This document shows positions 51,001-60,000 of a stretch of DNA of 64,000 nt, one piece after another (within the stretch, counting starts at the first letter, position 1; each line of letters begins with the position of its first letter). The DNA is from Candidatus Fraserbacteria bacterium (GTDB taxonomy: Bacteria > Bipolaricaulota > Bipolaricaulia > RBG-16-55-9 > DRXL01). Position numbers: made by a program. Location: the NCBI GenBank assembly GCA_947085185.1, contig CAMTVK010000003.1, positions 64,001 through 128,000 on the forward strand, given 5' to 3'.

Positions 51001-54000
51001 GCAAGCGTGCTTGCCCGGCGCTGGGAGGGCTGATCTGTCCGTCATGCTGTGGGCAGCATCGCGGGATCGACATCAGCTGTCCGATCAGCTGCAAATATTT
51101 CAAGGCGCATGAGAGCTATCAGCGCGATCGGCTCGCCGACGAATTCCACGCCCTGTGGCGTGAGAAGACCGAATCCCTCTATAAAGCTGGCAAGGAGCGC
51201 GTGATCGATCTCATCGTCATGATAGAGATGCTGATCTATCAGTTCTATCGGGAGCGGGCCTTGGGCACAGACACCGATGTGCTCGAGGCGCTCGAAGCGC
51301 TCCGACGTCGGTTCAGCCCAGTGATGGTCATCGAGGCGGGGAGCACCGCGTTAGCTGCTCACATATGGCACGGCCTGCAAGAGTTTAAAGAATCCCTGAC
51401 TCCTGAAGAGGCCTCCGAGAGCTTAGAGAAGAGCTTGGAGATCTTCAGAGCCTACACGGACGCAACGCATCCCAGAAAGTATCTGCACGGGCTTTTGGGG
51501 CACGTCGCGCGATATTTTCAGCTTCCTCCGGAGATGACCACCAGCCCATCCCTCATTGCTACCCCGCAGATCGTCACGCCTCCTACTGCCAGGGGATGAC
51601 CCATTCCCACTGGGGCCCACGGAAGTACTGTCCAATAATAATGAGCGCGATCGCCGCTCCTATTAAGAAGACAAAGAGCGCTGTAGTCACCGGGCGGTCC
51701 CGCAGACGACGTCCCGGGGGCTTGCTCTTGTCTTTTCTCCAGAACTCCAGATAGGGCTCAATATAGGGGATCGCGATCAAGATCAAAATAAAGAGCGTGG
51801 GCGCGATCACGCCCCCAAGAGCCACGCTTGTCAGCGGCCCAATATTGGGAGAAATTGCTAACAGCTCTTGGATGCCCACAAAGTACCAAGGGGCTTTCTC
51901 GGGATTGGGCGTGAACGATGGGGTCGCCGGTTCTTGGAGTGGGGCATCGCGGAAGACTGAATAGATCCCAAGCCCCGCCGTCAATACAAACAGAATCGTA
52001 AACGCTACATAGAGAAAGTACGGATAGGTGATGATCTCTTCTTCTTCGGTGGGGAGGCGCTTGGCGAACGCTTCGAGGATCTTCTGGACTTTTTCGTGGG
52101 TGAGCTCAAACTGGGTTGGGATCTCTTTGGTCTTCTGCTCTTTGGAGACGTAGCTAAAGATCGTATAGAGAGCTTCAAAGTCTGAGGGGTCGCCGCCGCC
52201 ATCGAGCAAGGCTTCCACGCGATTGCTCAAGTCTTTGAGTCTCTTCACGGTCAGCGTCTGTCTGGAGGGCAGCTGGCGCAACGGGATCTTCTCGGCAGCG
52301 TAAGCCAAGACATCTCTCACGAGCCCTGGCTCGATCTGAAGAGCTTCGGCGACTTCGTAGCCTGGGATTTCTATCTCTATCTCTTGGGTGACGTTGATTT
52401 GACATGAGAGCCGCCAGCCCTGGCTGAGCTGCTCTTCGCCCAGGACGTCGAGCTCATTTTGATTGGGCTCTCCTCCGCCCTTGAAGACTCTGACGGCACA
52501 GGTCGAGCACTGCCCCTGGCCTCCGCACGTCGCAGGGAGTTGATCATCATAGCGATGCTCTTGAATGAGCTTTAAGAGATTGGTCCCTGGTCGGACGTCA
52601 AATTCTTTCTGGCCAAGAATGACGACCTTGGGCATACTAGCTGGGGTTCACCCCTGCCTTGGCGGCTTGTTTGAGTCTCTCTAAGACGGGCGTGCCGCCG
52701 GGGTAGCACCCATCGAGCTTGGCTTTGCCGGCGACGACAGCCTCCGCAAAATCCTCGCACGTGGGATACCCGCAGGCCAGACAATCAAAGCCGGGCAAGA
52801 CCGCGCGGAGCTTGGCCGCCGCGGGCGAGAGCGCTGGAGCTTTGGGAGCTTCAGGAGCTTGCTCGACCTTGGGCCAGGACATGACTAACGGCTTAAAGAG
52901 CTCGATCACAAGATCGCTCTTCATCGAGATCTGGCATGATAAGACCCAGCCCTCCTTGCGCAGCTTATCGCTGAGGGGGCCGAGCATCGCCGGGGTGATC
53001 TGCTCTGGAGCCAGCCCTTCTAAGACTTTGACGCGGCAGGTCGCGCACGTGCCCTTGCCGCCGCACTGCGCGAACAGATCATACCCGGCTTTTTTGAGGG
53101 CTTGCATCAGGTTCTGCTCCAGGGGTAAGACCAGCTCATTGCCGTCGTTGACGATCTTGACGCGTGCCTCTCCCTCAGCTGTGAGCACATTCTTTAATAT
53201 CCCTAACACAAGAGCTACCGAGATGGCCATCAGGGCCATCGTCGCTACTGGTACGAGATAGACCATAAGATCACAAGCTATGAGCTTGGTTTTTCATCCT
53301 CCAAAGTCGCGAATATTGATCATTCCCGAAAAGCCCACGAAGCTCATGGCCATGAGGCCCGCAATGATCAGGGCGATCCCTGGGCCTTTGAGCCCCTCAG
53401 GGATGGGAGCAAAGCGCAGGCGCTCTCTCATAGCCGCCATCAAGATGATCGCCAAAGCCCAACCGACGCCCCCGCCAAACCCAAACGCCACGCTCTCGAG
53501 AAACCCCAAATTCCATGTGGCTAACGCGAAGAGCACCCCGCCCAGAATCGCACAATTCACTGTGATCAAGGGCAAGAAGATCCCTAAAGAGTTATACAAA
53601 GCCGGGAGAAAGCGCTTCATGAACATCTCCACGGCCTGGACCAAGAACGCGATCGTCACAATATAGACGATGAGCGACAGATATCCTACTCCCAAGGGAT
53701 CGAGCACAAAGTGCTTGATGAGCCAATTGGCAGGCAGGGTCATGGTCAGCACGAAGATCACCGCCATGCCCATCCCCGACGCCGATGCGTATTCGCCCGA
53801 GACGCCAATGAACGGACAGATTCCCAAGAACGTCGTGAGCAAGATATTATTCGTGAGGATCGCGCCAAGCACAATGAGAAAGATGTCCATAAGCTACGCG
53901 CCTCCTCCGATCTGGCCGCCGGGGGAGAAGTGCCTTACGATCCCGACATACAGCCCCACAAGTAAGAACGCCCCCGCCGGGATGATCATGATGACCCAGG

Positions 54001-57000: not shown

Positions 57001-60000
57001 GCTACGGAGACGACGCGCTCGACGAAGGGCTTGCCCTCTACGACCGCTTCATAAGCTGCCACACACTGCTGGACATCACACACGACGCACCCGACGTCAG
57101 TGGCGTAGCCTCGCTGCGGGAGCAGGAGCCCCAAGAGCGTGCGCACAAGCACCGCGTCGTCGCCCTGAGGGTATTTGGGACGCAATTGATGGATCGTGCA
57201 CCAGTCATAGTATTCGAGGCGCTCGATGAGCTCTTCGTAGATTCTCGGCTTGTTATATCCCAAGCCAATGTGCACTTGGACGTTCCCGAGCGCTTGGCGC
57301 AGGATCTTGATGCCGTTGACAAATTTGTCGAACTCTTCGTAGAGCAACTGATCGGGTGCTTCGCAGAACGGCTCGGTCTCAACGGCGTTGATTAGTAAAT
57401 AGCGAATCTTCTCTGGAGTGGCTGGGGAGGAGTGATAGATCGTGGGGAAGCCCGCTTGGCCTCCCGAAGTGACCCCGGCTTCGTAGAGGATTTTTCCCAG
57501 TTCTTCTGGGGGCAGTTTTTCGTAGTTGGCCGGGCGATCAAGCAAGAGCCAATCGTCTTTGCCGTCGGACTCGATCTCGACGCAGAGGGCCTCGCCACCT
57601 AACGGATGCGGGCGCTTCTCTATCTTCACGACCCTTCCGGAGATGCTTGCGTGGACAGGGGTCGAGGGTCTGTTGGGGTCGGGCTCGTTGCGCCCGATGA
57701 CCTGCCCCGTCTTGACGCGGTCGCCCTCTTTGACAGTCGGCACGACTTCGGCAGAAAAGCCCTGACGCAAGGGAATCAGAACTCTCGGGGGCAGCGGCGC
57801 GGATGCGAGCCGCTTGCCGCGCGGCGTCCCCTCAAAGAGCCCAAAGTAATGGCCACCCTTGAACGTCTTGAGCGCTCCTAAGACAGCCATTTAGCGTCGC
57901 TTCCTTTCTTCGGTCCACCAGGGTTTGCTGTACTCGTCCTTGCGAATTCTCCAAAAGTGCAGCGCCACGAGAAAGATCAACGCCATCGGCAGCACAAAGA
58001 TGTGAATGACGTACCACCGCAAGAGCGAGGGCTGCCACAGGTCCGTGCCCCCCAAGAGTATCTGTTTCACATACGGCCCGATGATTGGTGTGCCGTCCGC
58101 GATATTGCTGGCGATCTTCGCTGCATAATAGCCCAACTGGTCCCAGGGCAGAATATACCCACTGAATGCAGAGAGCACCGTGATGACGAAGAGCAAGACC
58201 CCGATGACCCAGTTGAATTCTCTGGGCTTTTGATAGGATCCGGTGAAGAAGACCCTCAGCATATGGAAGAACACGGCGAAGACCATCAGCTCGGCGGCCC
58301 ATTTGTGCATATTGCGCATGAATCTTCCCAAGGGCACAGCGTTGACCAGCTCGCGGATAGAATCATAGGCACGCTCAACTGAGGGCACATAATAGAACAT
58401 TAAAAAGACCCCGGTGATCAAGAGAATCACAAAGAGCCAGGTTGCGATCACGCCCATCCACATCCAATTGTAGCTGAGTCGGGCCGATTCTTTATGGATC
58501 TTCGCGGGCAGGATATGCACGAAGAAGTTGCGCCTATTGAGAGCGAGCCGGTCGGCTTCAGTCTGGGGCAGCCCCTCGCGGCGGAAGATGGAGAGCCACA
58601 CGCGCGAGCGCCGTATACCCTGGCCCAGCAGAAGGAGTCTGTCCATCATGAGAACTTGATGTCACTCCCGTCGGGGATGGGGCCTTCGATAGATCGGCCG
58701 TCGGCCGTGAGATACTGAGTACTTGGGACGACTTTGGCCTTATCGACTTGGAGACGGCCGTCGGGGGTGAGGGTGAGCTCATAGAAGGGCAGGGGTCGAG
58801 GCGCTGGGCCGCCCAGGACTCGCCCGTCGCGGGCAAAGACGCTCCCATGACAGGGGCAGAGCGCGTGCACCACGGGATACTCTTGACTTGGCGGCCCAAA
58901 GGGCTTATAGCTGCACCCCAGATGGGTGCAGACCATAGAGAGGGCCTGAAATCCCAAGGGCGTTCGGAAGATGAAGACCTGCTTCGCTTCGAGAGGGCGC
59001 ATCTCTCCGACCTGATAGTCACTGGGGCGCCCTACGGTGAACGTCGTGGTGGGCTCATAGGTCAGGTGCGGCTTCAGATAATACGGGACGCTCTGGGCCA
59101 CACCACCCAAAGCCAACGCGAGCGATCCCCATCCCAGCCACCCGAGAAAGCGTCGCCGCGTCAGCGGGCTCACTCTTGGGTCTCTGTCCGCCTCCATTCA
59201 GGAACCTGCTCCTTCGTTTATGGGGTGATTATATTACAGCCCCTTTGCGCTGTCAAACTTCTCTGATCTTCTACTCTATTGAGGGGATCTTTTGCCATGA
59301 TCTGCGTCATCCCTGAGGATGACGTCGGTCATGTGATGGCCCTCGCTCTTTTTGTTATGATTATTATATCAATGTTTACTGGGATTGTCACGGACACCGG
59401 CGAGGTGCTCACGGCGCACGCGACGCGGCTTGTCATCGCTACCCCTAAGCTCTTTGGAGCATTAGAAATCGGGCGGAGCGTCGCGGTCAATGGAGCGTGC
59501 CTGACGGTCATCGAGCTCACTCCTGCCGCGGAGAGCTTCGCGGCAGAGCTGAGCCCAGAGACCATCCGGCGCACGAACTTGGGAGCCCTGCGCCGCGGCG
59601 ATCTCGTCAATTTGGAGCTGCCCTTACGATTTTCTGATCGTCTCGATGGGCACTTCGTGCTGGGGCACGTGGACACCGTTGGGGAGGTCGTCTCGATCTC
59701 TCGCACAGAGAAGGGCGCGGTCTTCCGGTTTCGCGTCGATAAGAGCTACTCACACTATCTGGTCGAGAAGGGCTCGATTGCCATAGATGGGATCAGCTTG
59801 ACGATCTTCAATATCTCTGATGGGGAGTTTGACGTGGCGATCATCCCTCATACGCTCGAGCACACGAACTTACGGGTGCGTTGCCCTGGGGATAGAGTGA
59901 ATGTCGAGTTCGACATTTTGGGAAAGTATATAGAAAGACTCTGCAAGGGAGGCTGCTTGTGATGGGGTTTGCCAAGATCAAAGAGGCGCTGGAAGCGCTC

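Follow-up and report, generated by a model that had tools for sequence, protein, structure and literature searches.

The window, a stretch of 64,000 nucleotides equivalent to contig positions C3:64001-128000, contains an operon of nine open reading frames (window positions 51583–59197), all on the minus strand. In gene order these encode a Rieske protein, a cytochrome b, RnfC, RnfD, RnfG, RnfE and RnfA, a substitute for RnfB (referred to as B') and a subunit IV fused to a 2Fe-2S ferredoxin (Fer2) domain. Pfam and NCBIfam searches confirm the gene content and the fusion described in the survey's finding, with a correction to its coordinates: window positions are contig positions minus 64000, and not minus 96000, since the window starts at C3:64001. 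Once 64000 is subtracted, the contig positions offered as signs of translational coupling (122646–122649, 121890/121891 and 120466–120469) match overlapping or abutting gene ends exactly.

The genes are tightly packed, with intergenic gaps of −4, 0, −4, 6, 65, 3, 27 and 1 nt in gene order, and a single perfect-consensus promoter-like site is located upstream. This putative σ70-like promoter (TTGACA-17-TATAAT, 59228–59256, minus strand), a consensus match only, agrees at 12 of 12 hexamer positions and lies 31 nt before the start codon of the Rieske gene. The operon proteins carry every cofactor ligand that would be expected of them.

The quinone module and its fused subunit IV

The Rieske 2Fe-2S protein (58646–59197, 183 aa; PF00355, 5.5e-9) has an N-terminal RRRF twin-arginine motif with a hydrophobic anchor, and contains the cluster motifs CTHLGC (residue 90) and CPCH (residue 114). 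The PetC and bc1 Rieske models of NCBIfam score best, all of them below their cut-offs. Cytochrome b (57891–58649, 252 aa; PF00033, 1.8e-44) is a 4-helix, dihaem, b6-like protein of the ExtP clade (NF040969, 261 bits against a cut-off of 290), with four predicted transmembrane segments and the haem ligands His115/His129 and His216/His231; it has no Cytochrom_B_C match in the Pfam search of the operon proteins. It lacks any cysteine, and thus haem ci attachment.

The fusion protein (51583–52635, 350 aa) is made up of an NqrF-type 2Fe-2S domain (residues 1–94, Fer2 match at 8–83), a helical linker domain (approximately 100–195) and a three-helix ExtQ/PetD-like subunit IV (approximately 200–350) that carries NPEKAPWYF. 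The conserved linker joins the 2Fe-2S domain to the cytoplasmic N-terminus of subunit IV. The protein matches ExtQ (NF040970, 6.7e-12), PetD (TIGR01156, 7e-4) and, weakly, Cytochrom_B_C (E 0.0029, 18.3 bits, below the 20.7 cut-off). Structurally, the 2Fe-2S domain is closest to NqrF (Z 14.2 to chain 7xk3_F, with an rmsd of 1.7 for 91 residues), and b6f subunit IV (1q90_D, E 0.01, probability 0.99) is the top Foldseek match. In Nqr, the NqrF 2Fe-2S domain is a mobile shuttle, as seen by cryo-EM.

A new result is the placement of the subunit IV half in the ExtQ clade, whose members elsewhere are free-standing next to cytochrome b; of 68 loci with stand-alone homologues in other phyla, 67 have cytochrome b alongside. 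The KAPWYF motif is not special to the fusion: an alignment of 36 ExtQ-type subunit IV proteins, drawn from several phyla, shows it unchanged in all 36. A split form is present in two genomes (G097 and G098), where a 200-aa Fer2-plus-linker gene lies immediately upstream of a 162-aa subunit IV gene. Rieske protein, dihaem 4-helix cytochrome b and subunit IV together make up a bc-type quinone module that is complete in its cofactor-binding subunits.

The Rnf subunits and B'

RnfC (56466–57890, 474 aa; TIGR01945, 323 bits, cut-off 246) consists of an NAD(H)/FMN domain (Complex1_51K, 3.7e-25) and two [4Fe-4S] motifs, and its nearest PDB relatives are the RnfC chains 9eri_C, 7zc6_C and 8ahx_C. All 15 orthologues compared conserve its eight Fe-S cysteines without exception. 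The glycine loop, SGGQAGFPT, departs from the canonical GLGGATFPT of A. woodii, and NADH binding by RnfC is thus presumed. The most likely start of RnfD (55354–56469, 371 aa; PF03116, 2.8e-88; TIGR01946, 254 bits, cut-off 207) is the ATG at 56469 rather than an upstream GTG; the protein carries the flavinylation-type motif DAIAKATPL. RnfG (54649–55347; PF04205, 9.2e-13; TIGR01947, 89 bits, cut-off 102) has one membrane helix and an FMN_bind domain with a TGAT flavinylation motif (DAITGATYTS, residue 205); ApbE is encoded in the same genome. RnfE (53894–54583; PF02508, 4.1e-55; PRK12405, 205 bits, cut-off 184), which follows rnfG after the 65-nt gap and has an uncertain TTG start, contains Cys53 and Cys136, and RnfA (53294–53890; PF02508, 5.4e-56; TIGR01943, 217 bits, cut-off 229) contains Cys25 and Cys113. 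For RnfG, RnfE and RnfA the Rnf models are the best matches, with scores slightly below or above the cut-offs.

The ninth protein, B' (52637–53266, 209 aa), has a membrane helix, an NqrF-type 2Fe-2S domain (Fer2 at 43–115, 2.1e-11), an Ala/Pro-rich linker and an RnfB-type 4Fe-4S domain (PF04060 at 157–189, 2.4e-13); it has no polyferredoxin part. Residues 9–123 match NqrF (TIGR01941, 2.1e-17), residues 1–123 share 29–42% identity with NqrF genes of other phyla, and the rnfB model TIGR01944 gives 42.7 bits against a cut-off of 68.7. All 23 sequences compared share eight invariant cysteines. Judged by these sequence matches, B' is a chimera, newly recognised here, of an NqrF-type membrane helix and 2Fe-2S domain with an RnfB-type 4Fe-4S domain. 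The replacement of RnfB is real; canonical RnfB is found above cut-off nowhere in the genome. Two NqrF-type 2Fe-2S domains have thus been added to the Rnf and quinone modules, one in B' and one on subunit IV, and their Fer2 domains are paralogous (tblastn cross-matches at 28–42% identity).

Natural variants and respiratory context

Of 184 species genomes from the phylum Bipolaricaulota, 27 have the cluster, with fused or split subunit IV, and three natural forms can be distinguished. The co-occurrence counts below are drawn from related genomes and are thus not independent, and several of these genomes are incomplete MAGs. The nine-gene form occurs in 16 genomes; its order is the same in 7 of 7 public Bipolaricaulota loci of sufficient length, and in five further public loci that run into contig ends the visible genes fit it. 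The order in which Rnf genes part the subunit IV gene from the cytochrome b gene is kept across five families.

The six-gene form (11 genomes) has lost rnfG, rnfE and the greater part of rnfA but keeps RnfC, RnfD, B' and the b module. The six loci inspected all read Rieske, cytochrome b, RnfC, RnfD, B' and fused subunit IV, and PF02508 (RnfA/E) has no match anywhere in the 11 genomes. The N-terminal membrane part of the six-gene B' aligns to RnfA columns 116–189 (hhalign probability 96.5%, E 7e-10), indicating an in-frame deletion. The RnfC Fe-S cysteines remain invariant, and the flavinylation-type Thr motif is retained in three of four aligned six-gene RnfD sequences (G097 is ambiguous). In the RnfC tree the six-gene state occupies two separate, well-supported places (families f5 and f2, and G073 within f1), which suggests that the deletion occurred twice independently.

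The third form is that of a genome of the same genus (G085, 90% complete), in which three sites of an otherwise syntenic block have lost Rieske protein, cytochrome b, fused subunit IV and a tetrahaem cytochrome c; cytochrome b, COX1 and NuoH are all absent from this genome. Since its rnfCDGEA-B' reading frames are intact in the absence of a b module, Rnf may function there on its own. The RnfC of this genome lacks the GGQAGFPT flavin loop, and its Rnf may therefore be decaying.

The membrane-anchored tetrahaem cytochrome c of the window (47932–49119, plus strand; four CxxCH motifs, an N-terminal hydrophobic helix and weak multihaem Pfam matches) is encoded 2.5 kb from the operon and is a candidate electron acceptor of the Rieske protein. 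It is syntenic in 4 of 4 genus-level loci of adequate length and, in one genome (G092), adjoins the Rieske gene divergently. Within the host's order it is found in 26 of 26 genomes with fused subunit IV and in one of nine without; COX1 is found in 25 of those 26 and in none of the four genomes of family f4, which has no fused subunit IV. The role of the Rieske protein, called unexplained in the survey's finding, is less puzzling given this co-occurrence and the joint loss of cytochrome c and b module in G085.

The host genome encodes this Rnf only, aa3 and cbb3-type oxidases and a MenA-type prenyltransferase; MenB above cut-off and MqnA/D were not found in it. NuoH of complex I has no match in this genome (96.8% complete). 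It is absent from 10 of the 16 nine-gene genomes and present in all 11 six-gene genomes, so the proposal that the cluster stands in for missing complex I is borne out in part only. PntAB is also carried by these genomes.

Proposed electron transfer through a probable composite unit

RnfC, RnfD and B' are inherited with the b module also in the genomes that have no RnfG, RnfE or RnfA, which argues that the parts probably function as a single unit linked to the quinone chain. Of the earlier proposal of a single Rnf–b6 supercomplex this functional tie stands, and physical co-assembly is putative. We favour the view that the operon encodes a composite respiratory enzyme on an Rnf chassis, at slightly less than even likelihood. 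Rnf ion export accompanies electron flow from B to C, and low-potential electrons of ferredoxin would enter at B' and pass via RnfA/E, RnfG and RnfD to RnfC in this normal, ion-exporting direction; NADH would feed in directly at RnfC. Electrons would then leave at the RnfC/RnfD end, the one at which Nqr reduces quinone, and the tethered 2Fe-2S domain or domains would relay them to haem bH and the Qi site on the n-side, reducing (mena)quinone. NqrF-type 2Fe-2S clusters lie at about −270 mV and the b haems of menaquinone-type complexes at about −100 to −200 mV. The Rieske/Qo half and the separately encoded tetrahaem cytochrome c would carry out the usual transfer from quinol to cytochrome c, which leads on to the aa3 and cbb3-type oxidases. 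This wiring and direction are tentative. In solved Rnf structures electrons pass from the RnfC clusters to RnfD, and an exit that branches off RnfC into a ferredoxin domain has no precedent known to us. B' is kept in the six-gene form, where the model assigns it no necessary role, which speaks against the wiring.

Alternatively, two independent enzymes could share the operon. One would be an Rnf (ferredoxin:NAD+) whose RnfB is unusual, the other a Rieske/cytochrome b complex with a ferredoxin-like domain on subunit IV that serves this complex itself. Rnf genes without any cytochrome b in G085, Rieske/cytochrome b/ExtQ modules without Rnf genes in the 68 loci of other phyla, and the treatment of the Rnf genes as ordinary Rnf in the parts consulted of two genome papers (PMC3267732, PMC9586279) are consistent with this. 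However, all Rnf genes lie between the cytochrome b and subunit IV genes, an order conserved across families, and an independent Rnf would be useless without RnfG, RnfE and RnfA, yet 11 genomes, after apparently two deletions, retain intact RnfC, RnfD and B' next to the b module, with their ligands fully conserved. With the flavin loop also missing from the G085 RnfC, this explanation is unlikely.

A linear wire from the b6-type module through the 2Fe-2S domain of subunit IV and B' to RnfA/E, with NADH or ferredoxin reducing menaquinone via the whole Rnf chain as a pumping complex I substitute, is quite improbable. The adjacency of the B' and fusion genes (1-nt gap), their paralogous Fer2 domains, the RnfB-type domain of B', which feeds RnfA/E in solved Rnf complexes, the missing NuoH and the loss of the pump core only where NuoH is present (11 of 11 genomes) all fit it. 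The NADH route from RnfC through RnfD, RnfG and RnfA/E to B' is, however, the reverse, ion-importing Rnf direction, so that NADH:menaquinone turnover would run the gradient down instead of building it up, and ferredoxin as donor would bypass the pump entirely. The 11 genomes without RnfG, RnfE and RnfA further show that a wire through the A/E cluster, as originally proposed, is not obligatory.

Reversed bifurcation at the Qo site, similar to a scheme put forward for the NAD(P)-linked complexes of Rieske protein and cytochrome b in anammox bacteria, would send one quinol electron via Rieske protein and cytochrome c to oxygen and the low-potential one via the b haems and a 2Fe-2S relay to NADH at RnfC or ferredoxin via B'; it fits the complete Qo machinery (Rieske disulfide cysteines, haem bL/bH ligands, invariant APWY loop), the strict co-occurrence with cytochrome c and oxidases and the coexistence of the six-gene form with complex I, which makes that form unnecessary as an NADH entry point there, but it is doubtful indeed, as transfer from haem bH to an NqrF-type 2Fe-2S cluster would, by their typical midpoint potentials, be uphill by 100–200 mV and would also run against the membrane potential, outward pumping by the Rnf core would make the reaction yet more endergonic, and there is no obvious physiological need with PntAB also encoded.

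Under the favoured composite enzyme, the pump core would be an optional part of one unit, and the six-gene form, whose genomes have complex I too, may provide a non-pumping route by which RnfC passes electrons of NADH to the b module.

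The nine-gene operon and its Rnf subunits

The operon comprises nine open reading frames on the minus strand (window 51583-59197), which encode a Rieske protein, a cytochrome b, RnfC, RnfD, RnfG, RnfE, RnfA, a 209-residue substitute for RnfB (referred to as B') and a 350-residue protein in which a 2Fe-2S domain is fused to a subunit IV (referred to as Fer2-suIV), with intergenic gaps of -4, 0, -4, 6, 65, 3, 27 and 1 nt. Reading frame positions, gaps and family scans bear out the survey's finding of a nine-gene operon, with the correction that its contig positions fit only when 64000, and not 96000, is subtracted. 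A perfect sigma-70 consensus (TTGACA-17-TATAAT; a pattern match only) lies 31 nt 5' of the first gene. A search for sequencing runs listed six, from three studies, all of metagenomic DNA and none of RNA. The genome (1.72 Mb, 96.8% complete) contains no Rnf other than that of the operon, and it encodes ApbE.

In the family scan, RnfC, RnfD and RnfE exceed the cut-offs of their models (323 bits versus 246, 254 versus 207 and, for RnfE against PRK12405, 205 versus 184), while RnfG and RnfA are best matches that fall slightly below theirs (89 versus 102 and 217 versus 229 bits); the Pfam domains of all five are above threshold. RnfC contains a Complex1_51K domain and two CxxCxxCxxxCP motifs (eight cysteines), and its closest solved relatives are the RnfC chains of Rnf complexes (E 1.6e-60 to 1.7e-57). 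Flavinylation threonine motifs are present in RnfD (DAIAKATPL) and RnfG (TGAT), and RnfA and RnfE each carry two intramembrane-cluster cysteines. In these expected ligands and flavinylation motifs, and in the order C-D-G-E-A-B, the operon resembles the Rnf complexes of Acetobacterium woodii (9eri), Clostridium tetanomorphum (7zc6) and Azotobacter vinelandii (8ahx). It differs from them in the flanking Rieske and cytochrome b genes, in the existence of a natural form without RnfG, RnfE and RnfA, and in the make-up of B'.

Divergent from the operon are the riboflavin genes ribE, ribBA and ribH (59279-61588, plus strand), which are also found near it in genus-level loci, in the genus g3 and in three f5 loci of the six-gene form, and which may supply flavin for RnfC, RnfD and RnfG. 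On the other side, genes for an Rrf2 regulator, an Mrp/NUBPL-type Fe-S carrier ATPase, a FeS_assembly_P protein and a Cys-rich 210-aa protein without family match (49177-51599, plus strand) converge on the end of the operon, which the last of them overlaps by 17 nt. This block is syntenic within the genus and still present in G085, a genome of the same genus that lacks the Rieske, cytochrome b and Fer2-suIV genes.

B', the Fer2-subunit IV fusion and the cytochrome b module

RnfB is replaced, as the survey had claimed: no canonical RnfB above cut-off is encoded anywhere in the genome, and B' reaches 42.7 bits against the rnfB model TIGR01944 (cut-off 68.7), over model positions 34-87 only. Residues 1-123 of B', including its membrane helix, instead match NqrF (TIGR01941, 2.1e-17, model positions 5-120 of 405), and the matches of this part in other phyla are NqrF genes only (29-42% identity). 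The Fer2 domain sits between the helix and a PF04060 domain, B' has no Fer4 domain, and eight cysteines, four in Fer2 and four in PF04060, are invariant in 23/23 aligned family members. With these NqrF-type residues and the PF04060 domain that opens RnfB, B' is a chimera of an N-terminal NqrF part and the first, 4Fe-4S domain of RnfB, from which the ferredoxin-binding polyferredoxin part of RnfB is missing. Among the 80 loci kept, the complete helix-Fer2-FeS architecture occurs only in 27 loci of Bipolaricaulota type. Some B' proteins have two tandem PF04060 domains after Fer2 (L110 of genome G092, 8678-9481, and proteins P0098 and P0101).

The Fer2 domain of Fer2-suIV (AF2 model, pLDDT ~80) is likewise of NqrF type by sequence (TIGR01941, 4e-16) and by fold, with NqrF 7xk3_F ranking first among 48,161 solved chains (Z 14.2, rmsd 1.7 over 91 residues). 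Neither B' nor Fer2-suIV has the FAD/NADH domain that follows the 2Fe-2S domain in NqrF. Residues 100-195 of Fer2-suIV form a confidently predicted helical linker domain (pLDDT 80-88), for which a comparison of residues 95-200 with the Atlas gave no usable match.

The membrane part consists of three helices and matches ExtQ (6.7e-12) and PetD (7e-4), with a match to PF00032 (Cytochrom_B_C) below threshold. For a model of this part alone (pLDDT 73), Foldseek ranks b6f subunit IV 1q90_D first (E 0.01, probability 0.99) and the next twelve matches are bc1 entries, so that the first 13 are all b6f/bc1; VIA-align also puts a b6f subunit IV first (1vf5_B, Z 4.9), at a score not separated from unrelated helical chains. 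The profile of the whole protein found only ferredoxin-type 2Fe-2S proteins among the best 60 of 108 matches to PDB sequences. Stand-alone homologues of the membrane part, in Geobacterales, Gemmatimonadota and others, have a cytochrome b neighbour in 67/68 loci and a Rieske gene in 63/68, with no RnfD, RnfG, RnfE or RnfA match in any of the 68. The ExtQ and PetD scores, the synteny with cytochrome b and the b6f-type fold match together make the identity as subunit IV well supported. The loop NPxKAPWYF is invariant in 36/36 aligned members and is therefore a marker of the ExtQ clade, not of the fusion. In solved b6f complexes the N-terminus of subunit IV lies on the cytoplasmic side, which would place the fused 2Fe-2S domain on the n-side, beside haem bH and the Qi pocket.

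In a protein-database search the full-length fusion was represented by 53 clusters (47-99% identity), and ten proteins of 199-208 aa correspond to the Fer2-plus-linker half alone. No longer fusion was found among proteins of 614-2000 aa, in a search that counts as weak evidence.

The Rieske protein carries an RRRF motif and both cluster boxes (CTHLGC at residue 90 and CPCH at 114). Cytochrome b (252 aa, PF00033 1.8e-44) has four helices and haem ligands H115/H129 and H216/H231, and the paired-histidine spacing of 13 and 14 residues, the separate three-helix subunit IV with its Qo loop and the Rieske boxes are all as in b6f and Firmicute-type bc complexes. Unlike these, cytochrome b has no cysteine at all, and hence no haem ci attachment residue near the start of helix A, the Qo motif is APWY as opposed to the PEWY type, subunit IV bears a cytoplasmic 2Fe-2S domain, and none of the nine genes encodes a cytochrome f, c1 or di-/multihaem cytochrome c.

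The nearest named families are ExtP and ExtQ. As both scores are below the curated equivalog cut-offs (ExtP 7.6e-78, 261 bits versus 290; ExtQ 45.8 bits versus 150), cytochrome b and subunit IV represent clades related to ExtP/ExtQ but not the same family. The three-gene module ExtO/ExtP/ExtQ of Geobacter has the same composition and the same KAPWYF loop, without Rnf genes and without the Fer2 fusion; it belongs to the cluster extHIJKLMNOPQS, which in the part of the source that treats it is described as encoding multihaem cytochromes and a porin, with ExtO/P/Q uncharacterised in function (PMC5877670).

A tetrahaem cytochrome c with a membrane helix and four CxxCH motifs is encoded 2.5 kb from the operon (47932-49119, plus strand). 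Among 35 genomes of the order it occurs in 26/26 with the fusion and in 1/9 without it, these and all other co-occurrence counts here coming from related, often incomplete MAGs that are not independent; the one exception, the fragmented assembly G083, contains part of the operon. Within the genus the cytochrome c gene keeps its syntenic position, and in family f3 it is divergent from and adjacent to the Rieske gene. It is plausibly the missing cytochrome c1/f equivalent, and may on this distribution be a member of the complex.

Natural variants and the rest of the respiratory chain

The full-length fusion is present in 25 of the 184 species genomes of the phylum, and in two more (G097 and G098) it is split into adjacent genes. 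The order of all nine genes is kept in each of the seven public loci long enough to show them, and five further loci are consistent with it but cut by contig ends; these relatives are labelled Candidatus Bipolaricaulota/Acetothermia, with a few labelled Fraserbacteria or Thermotogae.

The RnfA/E family is present in 16 of the 27 fusion or split genomes and gave no match in the other 11, namely all nine genomes of family f5 together with G072 and G073. Six of these 11 loci were inspected, and all have the six-gene order Rieske, cytochrome b, RnfC, RnfD, B' and Fer2-suIV. Six-gene B' has an extra N-terminal membrane part, which in a profile comparison aligns to RnfA columns 116-189 (probability 96.5%, E 7e-10), beginning immediately beyond the second cluster cysteine of RnfA. 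On this alignment, which shows a remnant of RnfA within B', the six-gene form arose when rnfG, rnfE and codons 1-115 of rnfA were deleted in frame. All eight Fe-S cysteines of RnfC persist in this form, and the flavinylation-type threonine motif of RnfD is present in 3/4 aligned sequences, with G097 ambiguous. An RnfC tree, rooted at the midpoint only, places the six-gene state at two separate well-supported positions, in f5 with f2 (97/95) and in G073 within f1 (99/98), and B' is organised differently in G073. As the remnant indicates deletion, even the unrooted split requires two losses, and the simplest reading is that the deletion occurred twice independently.

The converse form is found in G085 (90% complete), in which the operon, within a fully syntenic block, is reduced to rnfCDGEA-B'. 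The Rieske, cytochrome b and Fer2-suIV genes are missing, as is the tetrahaem cytochrome c gene from its place between dxr and the Rrf2 regulator gene, and cytochrome b, COX1 and NuoH are all absent from this genome. Its RnfC (L111, G085:C4 12021-13406) has lost GGQAGFPT and two further residues of the NAD(H)/FMN domain in frame, with the reading frame intact, which may reflect decay or an NqrA-like loss of cofactor. Two apparent fusions in another genome, G100, were rejected: the RnfC frame merely continues upstream without a stop, giving the appearance of a cytochrome b-RnfC fusion, and the Fer2-suIV frame likewise continues over B', which mimics a fusion of B' to subunit IV. In family f9, open frames (361-404 aa) that begin with an NqrF-like Fer2 part adjoin a pair of RnfA/E-family genes (for example G062:C53:2314-3867 and G067:C28:2243-3853), and many f9 genomes have four RnfA/E-family genes.

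RnfC, RnfD and B' are thus co-inherited with the b module (Rieske, cytochrome b and subunit IV), and RnfG, RnfE and RnfA are optional. The operon is tied to an oxygen-respiring chain, as COX1 is present in 25/26 fusion genomes versus 0/4 genomes of the fusion-less family f4 among the 35 genomes of the order. NuoH is absent from 10/16 nine-gene genomes and present in 11/11 six-gene genomes.

The genome under study has no NuoH; it encodes an aa3-type oxidase operon, a cbb3-like oxidase and PntAB. The NDH2_C family gave no match in it, with a control that matched just 3/14 reference genomes, so that an NDH-2 may still be encoded. The quinone is presumably menaquinone: a MenA-type prenyltransferase above the TIGR00751 cut-off is encoded (contig C14, L102:4702-5598), but neither MenB above cut-off nor any MqnA/D match was found in the whole genome. 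A 1128-aa protein outside the window (C3:7719-11105; L194:2219-5605), taken at one stage for a pyruvate:ferredoxin oxidoreductase, is instead a Pyr_redox_2/Fer4_20/Fer4 protein with two Pyr_redox-type domains, Fer4_20 and a C-terminal 2x[4Fe-4S] part, and possibly acts as an NAD(P)H:ferredoxin-type oxidoreductase. A further Rieske/cytochrome b locus (L099, C9:4963-10026) encodes a full-length 364-aa cytochrome b followed by multihaem cytochromes c of 408 and 603 aa; it is flanked by two Crp-type regulators and preceded by a 193-aa open reading frame without family match.

Proposed electron routes and significance

The products of the operon probably work as one functional unit, for which the contacts between modules and the direction of electron flow discussed here are all ones that we infer. 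The survey had proposed a supercomplex in which the b module is wired through the Fer2 domain and B' to RnfA/E. The single functional unit remains likely; the wire through the pump core (RnfG, RnfE and RnfA) is unlikely to be an essential link, because RnfA/E are deleted in the six-gene form. Moreover, Rnf imports ions when run from RnfC through RnfD, RnfG and RnfA/E to the RnfB position, here B'. An Nqr-like logic is favoured, as the wire is not needed where RnfA/E are lost and would be ion-importing with NADH as donor.

According to the Nqr-like route, ferredoxin electrons would enter at B' and pass through the core in the exporting direction, NADH electrons would enter at RnfC, and the exit would be at the RnfC/RnfD end, with haem bH and Qi reached via the tethered 2Fe-2S domain. 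The Rieske/Qo side and the tetrahaem cytochrome c would then act as an ordinary quinol:cytochrome c reductase. NADH has a potential of -320 mV, NqrF-type clusters of about -270 mV, the b haems of menaquinone complexes of about -100 to -200 mV and menaquinone of -74 mV, an order that fits this route. Three observations are also in keeping with it: the cytochrome b gene abuts rnfC, RnfC/RnfD stay with the b module, and the pump core is lost solely from genomes that have complex I. The route leaves the persistence of B' in the six-gene form unexplained, and we know of no precedent for a side exit of electrons from RnfC. A further rival is an enzyme that bifurcates electrons at Qo, as a quinol:NAD+/cytochrome c oxidoreductase; the view that the operon encodes two unrelated complexes is the one weakened most by the six-gene form.

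The Nqr-like route shares with Na+-NQR (NqrA-F) the NqrF type of both added 2Fe-2S domains and the proposed reduction of quinone at the RnfC/RnfD (NqrA/NqrB) end. In contrast to NqrA, which is cofactor-less, RnfC still has the Fe-S cysteines and the NAD(H) domain, each subunit scores better against the Rnf than against the Nqr model, and the quinone site would come from the cytochrome b module. True Nqr operons probably also exist in the phylum and are a possible source of the NqrF-type domains. In anammox bacteria, NAD(P)-linked Rieske/cytochrome b complexes have been proposed, whose operons similarly encode a pyridine-nucleotide-reactive flavo-iron-sulfur subunit; their NAD(P) module is unrelated to RnfC/RnfD, and they are not known to have an Rnf pump core or a Fer2-subunit IV fusion.

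At its furthest, the reading extends to a single membrane megacomplex, a tentative and rather doubtful proposal, in which electrons would leave the Rnf-type pump at its RnfC/RnfD end and reach the n-side haem of the Rieske/cytochrome b module by way of the tethered NqrF-type 2Fe-2S domain. Such a ferredoxin/NADH:menaquinone:cytochrome c oxidoreductase would be complex I and complex III in one. It would contain a working ferredoxin-to-Qi route; for cyclic electron flow through cytochrome b6f, such a route has long been under debate and is, to our knowledge, only a hypothesis. Since B' unites the 4Fe-4S domain of RnfB with the helix and 2Fe-2S domain of NqrF, the enzyme would also represent a present-day intermediate between Rnf and Na+-NQR.

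Rnf, Nqr and bc/b6f are three basic energy converters of prokaryotes, and we know of no enzyme that unites Rnf-type and Rieske/cytochrome b modules. The operon is most aptly classed as a new variant in which two known types of complex are combined; should co-assembly be shown, it would stand for a respiratory enzyme of a new class. Of the Rnf and Rieske/cytochrome b combination, the main texts of openly accessible papers yielded only one instance: Takami et al. (2012), in the part that concerns these genes, described rnfCDGEAB with Rieske and cytochrome b as an operon-like eight-gene cluster and read it as a ferredoxin:NAD+ pump (PMC3267732). The corresponding part of Colman et al. (2022) likewise counts the genes as Rnf (PMC9586279). 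Within the same scope, nothing was found on B' as a chimera, on the fusion of subunit IV or on the six-gene and b-less forms.

The B' chimera bears on the origin of Nqr from Rnf, and the nine-gene, six-gene and b-less forms amount to natural deletion mutants, with which the question could be tested by comparative biochemistry and structure. If assembled, the complex would place a natural ferredoxin domain at the n-side of cytochrome b, a matter of interest for the debated ferredoxin:plastoquinone reductase activity of b6f, and it would provide a new, complex I-free entry of ferredoxin/NADH electrons into the quinone chain. Reconstructions of Bipolaricaulota/Acetothermia, as far as the relevant parts of these two sources go, score the genes as ordinary Rnf (PMC3267732, PMC9586279), and the present reading would alter the energy yields predicted for these bacteria.
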